Shown piece by piece: positions 12,925 to 54,578 of a stretch of 64,000 nt of DNA (position 1 is its first letter; every line of letters starts with the position of its first letter). Under the pieces are notes generated by a model. The model did not search any database. It was given only the letters and a program-made list of their open reading frames with translations, and had not been told where the DNA came from. The position numbers were made by a program, and so were the translations under genes. This DNA comes from Octopus sinensis (taxonomy: Eukaryota), in NCBI RefSeq assembly GCF_006345805.1, contig NC_042998.1, forward strand, positions 123,194,001 to 123,258,000, read 5' to 3'.

Positions 12925-13308
12925 TACACACTCACACACACACACATATATAGATAAAGATGGCAACTTCTTGCTAACTCGTATATCTGTGTCGTCCTGA
13001 CAATCGTTAAGAAAAGTGGAAATAAAGACTGAACTGATTGAGTGAAATGTTGTATGTTGTAAAATTGATGTATTGTACAGGAGGAATCTTAATGATGATA
13101 TTAACCTCTCTGTCTATATATCTACCCCCTTTGTAATGTTGGCAAATGAAATAAGAATGTGCATTTTCCGTTTAATTGAAAAATCCTATATGTGGCTGAA
13201 GATTGCTCGACATTTTAAAACTGATGTAATACTTACAGTGTTTAATAAAATGAAGTAGCATGAAACAATTGTACTACTCTACGTTGGATATCCATGTTGC
13301 GTATTTTG

Positions 13309-26579: not shown

Positions 26580-26625
<46 letters not shown>

Positions 26626-26786
26626 TAAGGGTAGAAATTGATATTTATCAATTAAGACCAGTGGTCTAGCATATTAAAGGTAAAGGCATTTGAAAGATAT
26701 ATTCAAATGTAATAGGCTGAACTCCATGCACGCGATATTTCGGTATCGTGTTTGCATCTAGTCCAGAAAATTGCATTTATAACGGA

Positions 26787-26850
26787 CCATGCTGATGATG
26801 GCTGCAGTTTTCCTTGCGGAAAATAACAGCCGAAACTAATTAGTACATGG
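26787..26850 (+). ncRNA. Type I hammerhead ribozyme
   Basis: CCATG-CTGATGA-T-GGCTG..(TTTTCC/GGAAAA)..CAGCC-GAAAC-TAATTA-GTA-CATGG; predicted cut after 26845. Confidence 0.88.
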
Positions 26851-27292
26851 GTAATTATTTTATTTCGTATATTTTTCACTTGTTTATTGCTATGGTTTTG
26901 TGCTGAGTTTGATCTGAGAACATAATCTTTTGTGGTGAATGGCGATTTGACGTCTATATCTAGCATGTTGACTGTCCACTTTTCGTGTCCAGTCCTTAAT
27001 TGGTATATATAAATATTTTAATCTTCGGATTCTTTTTTAATATGCTAGACCACTGGTCTTAATTGATAAATATCAATTTCTACCCTTAATTAATTTTATA
27101 TAAATAAATATGTTCTCTAACCGATAAATTGACTGCTGCTAATTATTAGCTGCAGGCTAGTTTTCTCGGGCCTCAACGCGCCAAGGTAAAGGCATTTGAA
27201 AGATATATTCAAATGTAATAGGCTGAACTCCATGCACGCGATATTTCGGTATCGTGTTTGCATCTAGTCCAGCAAATTGCATTTATAACGGA

Positions 27293-27356
27293 CCATGCTG
27301 ATGATGGCTGCAGTTTTCCTTGCGGAAAATAACAGCCGAAACTAATTAGTACATGG
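27293..27356 (+). ncRNA. Type I hammerhead ribozyme (identical second copy)
   Basis: Same motif 506 nt downstream; predicted cut after 27351. Confidence 0.88.
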
Positions 27357-27669
27357 GTAATTATTTTATTTCGTATATTTTTCACTTGTTTATTGCTATG
27401 GTTTTGTGCTGAGTTTGATCTGAGAACATAATCTTTTGTGGTGAATGGCGATTTGACGTCTATATCTAGCATGTTGACTGTCCACTTTTCGTGTTCAGTC
27501 CTTAATTGGTATATATATATATATATATATATACAAACGTATACGCACACACACACATATATGTATATACATATATATATATATAAATAGATGTATATAC
27601 ATATATATATATATATATGTATATATATATTTATATGTATGTATATATAAATATACATATATATATATG

Positions 27670-52533: not shown

Positions 52534-52883
52534 TTTTGGATTAACTGGTGCTAGAGTGAGCCATATAGTGACCACTCTCTTATATTTATTTTGTAAAAAT
52601 ATTATAATATGTTATAAAATATTATAATAGTCCAGGTTTCTCGGAGCACTAGGCCACTTGGTGTTGAATAGATATACTATTAAATTAGTATCTAATTCTC
52701 TCACCCTTATTAATTAATTATAATTATGCTGCATTTATTTCTAAATGCTGTATTTGTTTTCCGTGAGAGTTTGGCGCGCTGTTAGTTGGGGCATTTGAAT
52801 TATAACGTCGGATGTAATCAATTGAACCACACGCGTATTTATCGTTATGGTAAAATCTGGCGTGTGATTGAGTGGATTTCATC

Positions 52884-52980
52884 CAGATAGTTTTGGCTGA
52901 CGAGCTACAAATGGATTTTTTTTGTAAGTAAAATTACATTTAATTCATTAATAGCGAAACAATTGTCCCAAAATAATCTG
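52884..52980 (+). ncRNA. Type I hammerhead ribozyme, unit 1
   Basis: CAGATAGTTTTGG-CTGACGA-GCTA..TAGC-GAAAC-AATT-GTC-CCAAAATAATCTG; predicted cut after 52967. Confidence 0.92.
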
Positions 52981-53419
52981 TATTTTTGTTATTTTTCATT
53001 TGCCCTGTCCGTGTGAGCTAACAATCGTACTGACTTTCATGGGAAACATGTATTTTCGTGGTTGAAACCTTTTGGATTAACTGGTGCTAGAGTGAGCCAT
53101 ATAGTGACCACTCTCTTATATTTATTTTGTAAAAATATTATAATATGTTATAAAATATTATAATAATCCAGGTTTCTCGGAGGACTAGGCCACTTGGTGT
53201 TGAATAGATATACTATTAAATTAGTATCTAATTCTCTCACCCTTATTAATTAATTATAATTATGCTGCATTTATTTCTAAATGCTGTATTTGTTTTCCGT
53301 GAGAGTTTGGCGCGCTGTTAGTTGGGGCATTTGAAATATAACGTCGGATGTAATCAATTGAACCACACGCGTATTTATCGTTATGGTAAAATCTGGCGTG
53401 TGATTGAGTGGATTTCATC

Positions 53420-53515
53420 CAGATAGTTTTGGCTGACGAGCTACAAATGGATTTTTTTTGTAAGTAAAATTACATTTAATTCATTAATAGCGAAACAATT
53501 GTCCAAAATAATCTG
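53420..53515 (+). ncRNA. Type I hammerhead ribozyme, unit 2 (one C missing at GTC/stem I)
   Basis: gtccaaaa instead of gtcccaaaa at 53501; may be a homopolymer sequencing error. Confidence 0.75.
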
Positions 53516-53952
53516 TATTTTTGTTATTTTTTATTTGCCCTGTCCGTGTGAGCTAACAATCGTACTGACTTCATGGGAAACATGTATTTTCGTGGTTGAA
53601 ACCTTTTGGATTAACTGGTGCTAGAGTGAGCCATATAGTGACCACTCTCTTATATTTATTTTGTAAAAATATTATAATATGTTATAAAATATTATAATAA
53701 TCCAGGTTTCTCGGAGCACTAGGCCACTTGGTGTTGAATAGATATACTATTAAATTAGTATCTAATTCTCTCACCCTTATTAATTAATTATAATTATGCT
53801 GCATTATTTCTAAATGCTGTATTTGTTTTCCGTGAGAGTTTGGCGCGCTGTTAGTTGGGGCATTTGAATTATAACGTCGGATGTAATCAATTGAACCACA
53901 CGCGTATTTATCGTTATGGTAAAATCTGGCGTGTGATTGAGTGGATTTCATC

Positions 53953-54048
53953 CAGATAGTTTTGGCTGACGAGCTACAATGGATTTTTTTTGTAAGTAAA
54001 ATTACATTTAATTCATTAATAGCGAAACAATTGTCCCAAAATAATCTG
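53953..54048 (+). ncRNA. Type I hammerhead ribozyme, unit 3
   Basis: Intact motif; predicted cut after 54035. Confidence 0.92.
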
Positions 54049-54341
54049 TATTTTTGTTATTTTTTATTTGCCCTGTCCGTGTGAGCTAACAACCGTACTG
54101 ACTTTCATGGGAAACATGTATTTTCGTGGTTGAAACCTTTTGGATTAACTGGTGCTAGAGTGAGCCATATAGTGACCACTCTCTTATATTTATTTTGTAA
54201 AAATATTATAATATGTTATAAAATATTATAATAATCCAGGTTTCTCGGAGCACTAGGCCACTTGGTGTTGAATAGATATACTATTAAATTAGTATCTAAT
54301 TCTCTCACCCTTATTAATTAATTATTTATATATATATATAT

Positions 54342-54444
54342 AACTCCTAGCATCTACACGTAGCCATCAACATCCACACCCGCCCCAAAAAGGCTGCAGT
54401 CTAACGACTGAATCATATATATATGTATATATATATGTATATAT

Positions 54445-54494
<50 letters not shown>

Positions 54495-54578
54495 CATATA
54501 TATATGATTCAGTCGTTAGACTGCAGCCTTTTTGGGGCGGGTGTGGATGTTGATGGCTACGTGTAGATGCTAGGAGTT
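54342..54578. repeat. Perfect 73-bp inverted repeat around a (TA)n spacer
   Basis: 54342-54414 is the reverse complement of 54506-54578. Confidence 0.95.

Follow-up and report, generated by a model that had tools for sequence, protein, structure and literature searches.

The closest described systems are the non-LTR retrozymes and the insertions of EN+ PLEs, and the statements made here on the cited papers refer to those parts of them that were covered. Cervera & de la Pena (2020; PMC7229834) proposed circRNAs as retrozyme templates and PLEs as candidate mobilisers of retrozymes, and Li et al. (2026; 10.64898/2026.07.22.740005) linked non-LTR retrozymes to pLTRs in vertebrates. In these sources, the case for a mobiliser of animal retrozymes has so far been built on co-occurrence and on the similarity to pLTRs. 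Palindromic dimeric hammerheads are described for newt and axolotl satellites and for the pLTRs of PLEs (PMC4209133, PMC7229834). With regard to integration, both strands of AT-rich DNA are nicked and extended by a purified PLE, for which a dimeric state is predicted. This PLE starts at two internal RNA sites, the interval of which forms the genomic tail, and the start site is equal on both target strands and has no homology to the target (PMC11167929). The mechanism behind the inverted ends and the one-sided tail of PLEs is still termed unvalidated in the parts of the literature covered.

The window, i.e. the whole 64-kb stretch of Octopus sinensis DNA that was analysed, contains an element with (TA)n on both sides. 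The left run at 26583-26617 is the presumed target, and the right run at 27510-27532 continues as a TA-rich tract to 28040. Two type I hammerheads of identical sequence are located on the plus strand at 26787-26850 and 27293-27356. Their stems I start at 26787 and 27293 and their CTGATGA cores at 26792 and 27298; in the first copy, stem I is formed by 26787-91 and 26846-50 and the core comprises 26792-98. Cleavage is predicted after 26845 and 27351, each time behind a GUA triplet. The predicted cuts are 506 nt apart, and the cut-to-cut unit at 26846-27351 (+) has a GC content of 35%. The region 26677-27011 is directly repeated at 27183-27517 over 335 bp with two mismatches (26767 and 26989), and 26612-26678 is the exact reverse complement of 27036-27102 (67 bp; BLAST E-value of 1e-33 for the inverted match in a 76-nt extension). 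The initial annotation had reported two hammerheads with cuts 506 nt apart, a 335-bp direct overlap, a 67-bp inverted copy at the left end and a position inside (TA)n, all of which was confirmed by the sequence comparison.

The element is composed of two head-to-head arms. The short inverted arm (26612-26678, minus strand) ends at a site named B and shares its outer 6 nt with the TA run. The long direct arm of ∼1.66 units (26677-27517, plus strand) ends at a site named A; its last clearly templated base is 27509, and 27510-27517 are common to the arm and the TA run. Both arms meet at 26677-26678 with an overlap of 2 nt, corresponding to unit positions 191 and 338. In this copy, the B arm thus stops after ∼67 nt and the A arm after ∼840 nt. 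The internal sites A (∼27003-27011) and B (∼27096-27102) enclose an A-to-B 'tail' at 27004-27102 (+) between the two fixed ends of the family. The longest ORFs starting with ATG encode 19 aa in sense and 87 aa in antisense direction. An ORF for RT and GIY-YIG is missing and the element is therefore non-autonomous. The predicted fold of the 506-nt unit had a z-score of -5.82, with none of 100 shuffled sequences being as good.

Each hammerhead has a 5-bp stem I, a CUGAUGA core, an extra U, a long stem II with a CAG/UAA internal loop, GAAA and the GUA triplet. Dimeric (double) hammerheads were reportedly treated by Lunse et al. in 2017. Stem III is a self-complementary sequence of 10 nt, ACUAAUUAGU, located at 26835-26844 and 27341-27350 on the plus strand. 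The initial annotation had given a palindromic UAAUUA cap, which is too short with 6 nt. In the runs X1, X17 and X19, AT or G is inserted at the exact centre of the palindrome (26839 / 27345) with its symmetry kept.

Rfam gave 0 matches at gathering in the whole 64-kb window, and 17 weak matches but no hammerhead among them at E ≤ 5 between 26500 and 27600. The motif call is thus based on the core, the stems and covariation. Stem I is fully paired in all four families that are described below, with CCAUG/CAUGG, CUAUG/CAUAG, CUCUA/UAGAG and UUUGG/CCAAA as covarying pairs. The stem III variants of the second family are still self-complementary in 18 of 18 cases. They include a change from A-U to G-C at positions 4 and 7, a pair that is impossible in a hairpin, and this covariation supports the predicted pairing between two copies. 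Other hammerhead-like motifs with a self-complementary stem III occur in the window at 13196 (+), 30834 (+), 34126 (-) and 39856 (+); these are probably remnants of other PLEs or retrozymes.

Folding was used to compare one and two copies of the ribozyme. For a single window copy, the predicted probability of the monomeric stem III was 0.003, and the core was predicted to pair with the 3' half of the palindrome (0.97). Two window copies cofolded into a double hammerhead with free cores at -53.4 kcal/mol compared to 2 × -24.2 kcal/mol. In a two-copy transcript, the palindromes were predicted to pair with each other at 0.58 with one 3' end of the transcript and at 0.24 with another, and the MFE structure still consisted of two blocked monomers. 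A double hammerhead with free cores was obtained by cofolding for six out of seven copies tested; in the cofold of family 4, the core stays paired. For the window copy, the single hammerhead is accordingly predicted to be blocked and the double hammerhead to be competent, and the double-hammerhead pairing of the two copies that had been suggested initially is supported by the folding values. In 106 of 184 units of family 1, stem III has 11 nt with a central U-U mismatch. A probability of 0.22 was predicted for its monomeric form, yet the dimer was also favoured, so that dimer dependence may be weaker in this majority variant.

A search of the genome (2.72 Gb) for further copies resulted in 1789 candidates on many contigs. 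The best 40 of them were scored and gave 251 matches with 91-100% identity among the matches listed. Forty stretches were retrieved, one of which (L070) was without a match, and 39 loci and the window were mapped as the 40 loci of family 1. Being the best-scoring ones, they are long and young copies, and short single-armed copies are therefore under-sampled. Thirty-three of the 40 loci were two-armed and head-to-head, with one arm on the minus and the other on the plus strand, and both varied in length. Their outer ends were found at two fixed unit positions ∼93 nt apart, namely, A at ∼158-166 and B at ∼251-257, and are followed by (TA)n. Among the 33 two-armed loci, 29 had one A and one B end, one (L059) was A/A, none was B/B and three had other ends, one of these reaching the edge of the retrieved sequence. 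L054 and L055 are probably one insertion that was counted as two loci. The proportion of A/B loci (29/30) differs from that of independent ends with p=2.9e-8. Apart from some loci like L054, the A and B ends pass into (TA)n in the flanking sequences inspected, and TSDs are unreadable in (TA)n targets. The junctions between the arms are mostly blunt, share 1-9 nt or carry short inserts; two overlaps of 33-45 nt and one gap of 185 nt were outliers.

Since the outer ends are fixed at A and B, the inverted piece in the window is a B arm of very short length, and A is the end of the long arm. The initial annotation had interpreted this piece as a 5' cap and the locus as a special unit. Instead, the piece is a second arm that has its end at RNA site B, and many insertions similar to this locus exist. 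Its suggestion of a PLE-type insertion footprint was borne out, as this footprint recurs across the family. The window locus is a real, young and ordinary copy of a retrozyme family. Taken together, the element is one insertion of a dispersed, protein-free 506-nt hammerhead repeat with two arms that end at A and B in (TA)n, and it was likely inserted in trans by the RT/GIY-YIG of a PLE.

An assembly artefact of a repeat in (TA)n could in principle mimic the duplication and inversion at this locus, as simple repeats flank the region and the inverted junction at 26677 was not bridged by any contig in the four runs examined. The exact position of this junction is consequently given by the assembly alone. 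Such an artefact is nevertheless extremely improbable, because the direct copies differ at two sites and the same end rule is found at dozens of loci with different junctions. Furthermore, contigs from other studies have TA loose ends at A and B, at 27016 (runs X1, X17 and X19) and at 27111 (X17 and X19); X17 and X19 are from two other studies, and X1 may be the assembled sample.

Two related families follow the same end rule. Family 2 is ∼80% identical and older, with 2562 candidates in the genome. Eighteen of its 30 loci, which were picked with a query ending at B, were head-to-head (16 A/B, one A/A and one other). Family 3 has a unit of 524 nt and 603 candidates, and 13 of 20 loci were head-to-head (ten A/B and three other). 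In family 4 (535 nt), a B/A pair was present at L107. Overall, one A and one B end were found in 55 of the 57 fully classed loci of three families. The motifs CTAGRCCACT and ACCCTTA in the A-B interval are common to all four families.

Family 4 is also represented in the window itself by an array of 3.3 units of ∼535 nt at 52534-54325 (+). It has one arm, ends at its B site in (TA)n and contains three hammerhead positions, two of which pass the motif scan. Just past this array, an inverted repeat of ∼60 nt surrounds (TA)n (54415-54505) at ∼54352-54560 and is either the footprint of an inversion or a fold-back of the assembly. The tail motif also occurs in two short relatives at L113:5978-6110 (-) and L118:7340-7640, suggesting a larger superfamily; these two matches are not PLE ends. 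From L054:5637 to L055:1302, another sequence of ∼5.7 kb that starts with a TTGA repeat splits a family-1 array exactly at the internal site A, and a similar TTGA-headed sequence splits family 3 at its palindrome (L158).

The arms of a locus were compared with each other after masking of the unit positions 158-175 and 248-270 in the variant counts. Opposite arms differed by 0.0070 substitutions per site, which is similar to the value within the same arm (0.0081), compared to 0.0187 between different loci. At ten diagnostic sites in 31 loci, the haplotypes of the arms agreed in 232 of 235 comparisons, with an agreement of 0.58-0.86 being expected for random pairs. All three disagreements were observed in L037 and L050, and L050 is a haplotype mosaic. 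Both arms are thus from one haplotype. In 17 of 30 family-1 loci (the 33 two-armed loci without L043, L051 and L066), both arms were longer than 506 nt. As both arms mostly exceed one unit, each of them usually crosses the ribozyme site and the start of the other arm.

The shared haplotype would be explained directly if one cDNA folded back or switched template onto itself, with the second arm as its copy and a resolution at the other site by the endonuclease. A self-priming model of this kind was proposed for PLEs (PMC3846280, in the part covered). One variant in L058 lies at mirror positions about the junction and a few family-2 loci (L121, L128 and L146) have near-mirror inner ends, as this model would expect. 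On the other hand, the inner ends of family 1 were mirror images within 15 nt in only one of 32 loci (KS against uniform p=0.92; L066 was left out of the inner-end counts due to its incomplete sequence), and the informative variants in L037 and L047 misfit a mirror. The near-absence of second arms from the same site is also left unexplained, though both sites are present in every unit. A fold-back origin is therefore unlikely, and a mirror (hairpin) origin of the second arm is not supported by the inner ends of family 1. The inner ends of family 1 were not enriched at the cut site either, with four out of 64 in positions 1-20 (p=0.25). In family 2, 16 loci were A/B, and four of their A arms end in positions 1-13, which is a post hoc hint from short arms. 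In-register copying of a linear multimer was not supported either, as one common scheme could not be fitted to the informative variants in L037, L047 and L058. Copying from a circular template is plausible.

Arrays of ∼17 units were found in L034 and L066, in which variants recur at periods of 3-9 units, either by later unequal exchange or by a multimeric template. In the long arrays of L034, L037 and L066, variants that recur in units not next to each other suggest later duplication, and arm length is consequently not a clean record of cDNA length. They also fit a satellite-like repeat, in which short copies came first, with multimers, inversions and the identity of the arms arising later via unequal exchange, gene conversion and recombination at TA-like sites. 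In accordance with this, both end sites are similar to (TA)n, and Li et al. propose local amplification of PLE ends in the part of their work covered (10.64898/2026.07.22.740005). However, such a history gives no reason for the one-A/one-B rule in 55 of 57 loci from three families, nor does it account for the dispersal of the loci, for their differing junctions or for ribozymes that are conserved and covary. It is regarded as improbable, even more so than a fold-back.

For insertion by a PLE in trans, the following course is proposed. Tandem transcripts would cleave themselves as double hammerheads that are paired via the stem III palindrome and release unit-length RNA, which may circularise; this step is proposed on the basis of folding, covariation and the retrozyme literature. 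The PLE enzyme would then nick both strands of (TA)n, and one cDNA would be primed at A and the other one at B, with RNA of one haplotype as template. We infer this two-site priming from the one-A/one-B rule by analogy with the PLE biochemistry in vitro. Each cDNA would pass the ribozyme site and vary in length, with either a circle or an uncut multimer as its template. Finally, the ends of both cDNAs would be joined head-to-head by a pathway consistent with the blunt, microhomologous or insert-bearing junctions observed.

As a more specific version, a PLE RT dimer might sit on one circular RNA with its subunits at A and B, use opposite nicks and roll with both subunits by strand displacement, which we put forward as a tentative possibility only. 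If true, it would yield a head-to-head pair of arms, both of them multimeric and of the same haplotype. It would also explain the inverted repeat plus tail of PLEs in general and make circles integration templates. Since the same start site is described for both strands in the part of PMC11167929 covered, the strict A/B pairing goes beyond the prediction of that work. The start site in that work is moreover non-homologous to the target, whereas A and B both abut TA-like bases here.

Intact PLE ORFs are present in this genome. An autonomous PLE encodes an ORF of 775 aa with RT and GIY-YIG domains, of which GIY-YIG passes the Pfam cut-off and RVT_1 narrowly misses it with an E-value of 2e-6. It has two ends ∼26 nt apart in (TA)n and was A/B in two of two loci with both arms visible. 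Terminal DNA similarity to the retrozyme units was not found in the 84 PLE-containing loci analysed (L071-L120 and L171-L204), which are a small sample of 5029 GIY-YIG candidates and cover two further PLE families in part. BLASTN of the four retrozyme units against these 84 loci gave nested retrozyme copies and one match of 32 nt; the latter (81-84% identity, E-value of at least 0.004) is located inside a PLE body and was dismissed as chance. One contig departs from the unit behind the ribozyme, and a motif taken from it had 0 matches in the genome.

The four retrozyme families have an ACCC(T) motif just before the B end in common with two families of autonomous PLEs, a weak similarity that was noticed post hoc. 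The motif is present at L201:5005-5020, at the ends of the L103 family and at 27080-27090 of the window, and L201 and family 3 are identical over 13 nt at this motif. It is possibly an RT recognition site. Young PLE families (L105, L109 and L110; L201) have an ORF of 437-479 aa upstream of the RT-EN ORF; the upstream ORF of 479 aa had no match in Pfam. By eye, a hammerhead-like motif with a U3-A8 core was seen in L201 ∼60 nt before the first end, and a more degenerate one in L110.

None of the runs with the unit sequence is on record as RNA. In run X8, which is RNA by guess, ten out of ten contigs examined were wholly on the unit, with the majority haplotype and not the one of the window locus. 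The single contig of near-unit length (480 nt) from a run guessed to be RNA had a haplotype other than that of the window locus. As contigs cannot show ends, strand or circles, run X8 was not counted as evidence.

The element shares several properties with non-LTR retrozymes as presented in the parts of PMC7229834 and 10.64898/2026.07.22.740005 covered, namely, non-coding units in tandem that each carry a type I hammerhead, a low GC content, a highly self-paired predicted fold and co-occurrence with PLEs. A period of 506 nt, one type I hammerhead per unit and arrays of up to ∼17 units at other loci place it in this class, and the type I motif in tandem units argues against the layout of LTR retrozymes. 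Its unit is within the range of 51-972 bp given in 10.64898/2026.07.22.740005, but exceeds the 170-400 nt of PMC7229834. In the published circles of non-LTR retrozymes covered, the ribozyme is mostly predicted to be free, whereas a single copy is predicted to be blocked here. Compared to the double hammerheads of newt, axolotl and pLTRs in the sources covered, the palindrome is longer (10-11 nt), stem II is long with its CAG/UAA internal loop, and the monomer core is predicted to be sequestered by the 3' half of the palindrome. Head-to-head arms, fixed ends and a tail are not described for retrozymes in the covered parts of PMC7229834 and 10.64898/2026.07.22.740005, and the terms tail, head-to-head and priming are absent from those of the latter. 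A literature search, with most subscription papers and supplements outside its scope, yielded no paper with the two-site footprint of PLEs in retrozymes.

The insertions resemble those of EN+ PLEs as described in the covered parts of PMC8557442, PMC3846280 and PMC11167929 in that an inverted copy is placed head-to-head, that only one of the two alternative ends carries a tail, that the targets are AT-rich or (TA)n and that the junctions show microhomology. The partial tandem with an inverted truncated copy, the tail at one end and the (TA)n target of the window locus are of this type. They differ from EN+ PLEs in the covered reports by the missing ORF, by a tail of ∼93 nt instead of 30-40 nt and by both arms often being multimers of whole units. 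Compared to the same reports, the end pairing was counted here and is nearly strict. The element is hence a copy of a new retrozyme family, whose class and kind of footprint are known, and the additional value is the family itself with the nearly strict rule of one A and one B end and multimeric arms of the same haplotype. It ties protein-free retrozymes to the PLE machinery by the anatomy of their insertions, and a template of 506 nt with two predicted start sites makes the choice between a circle and a linear template testable in vitro.
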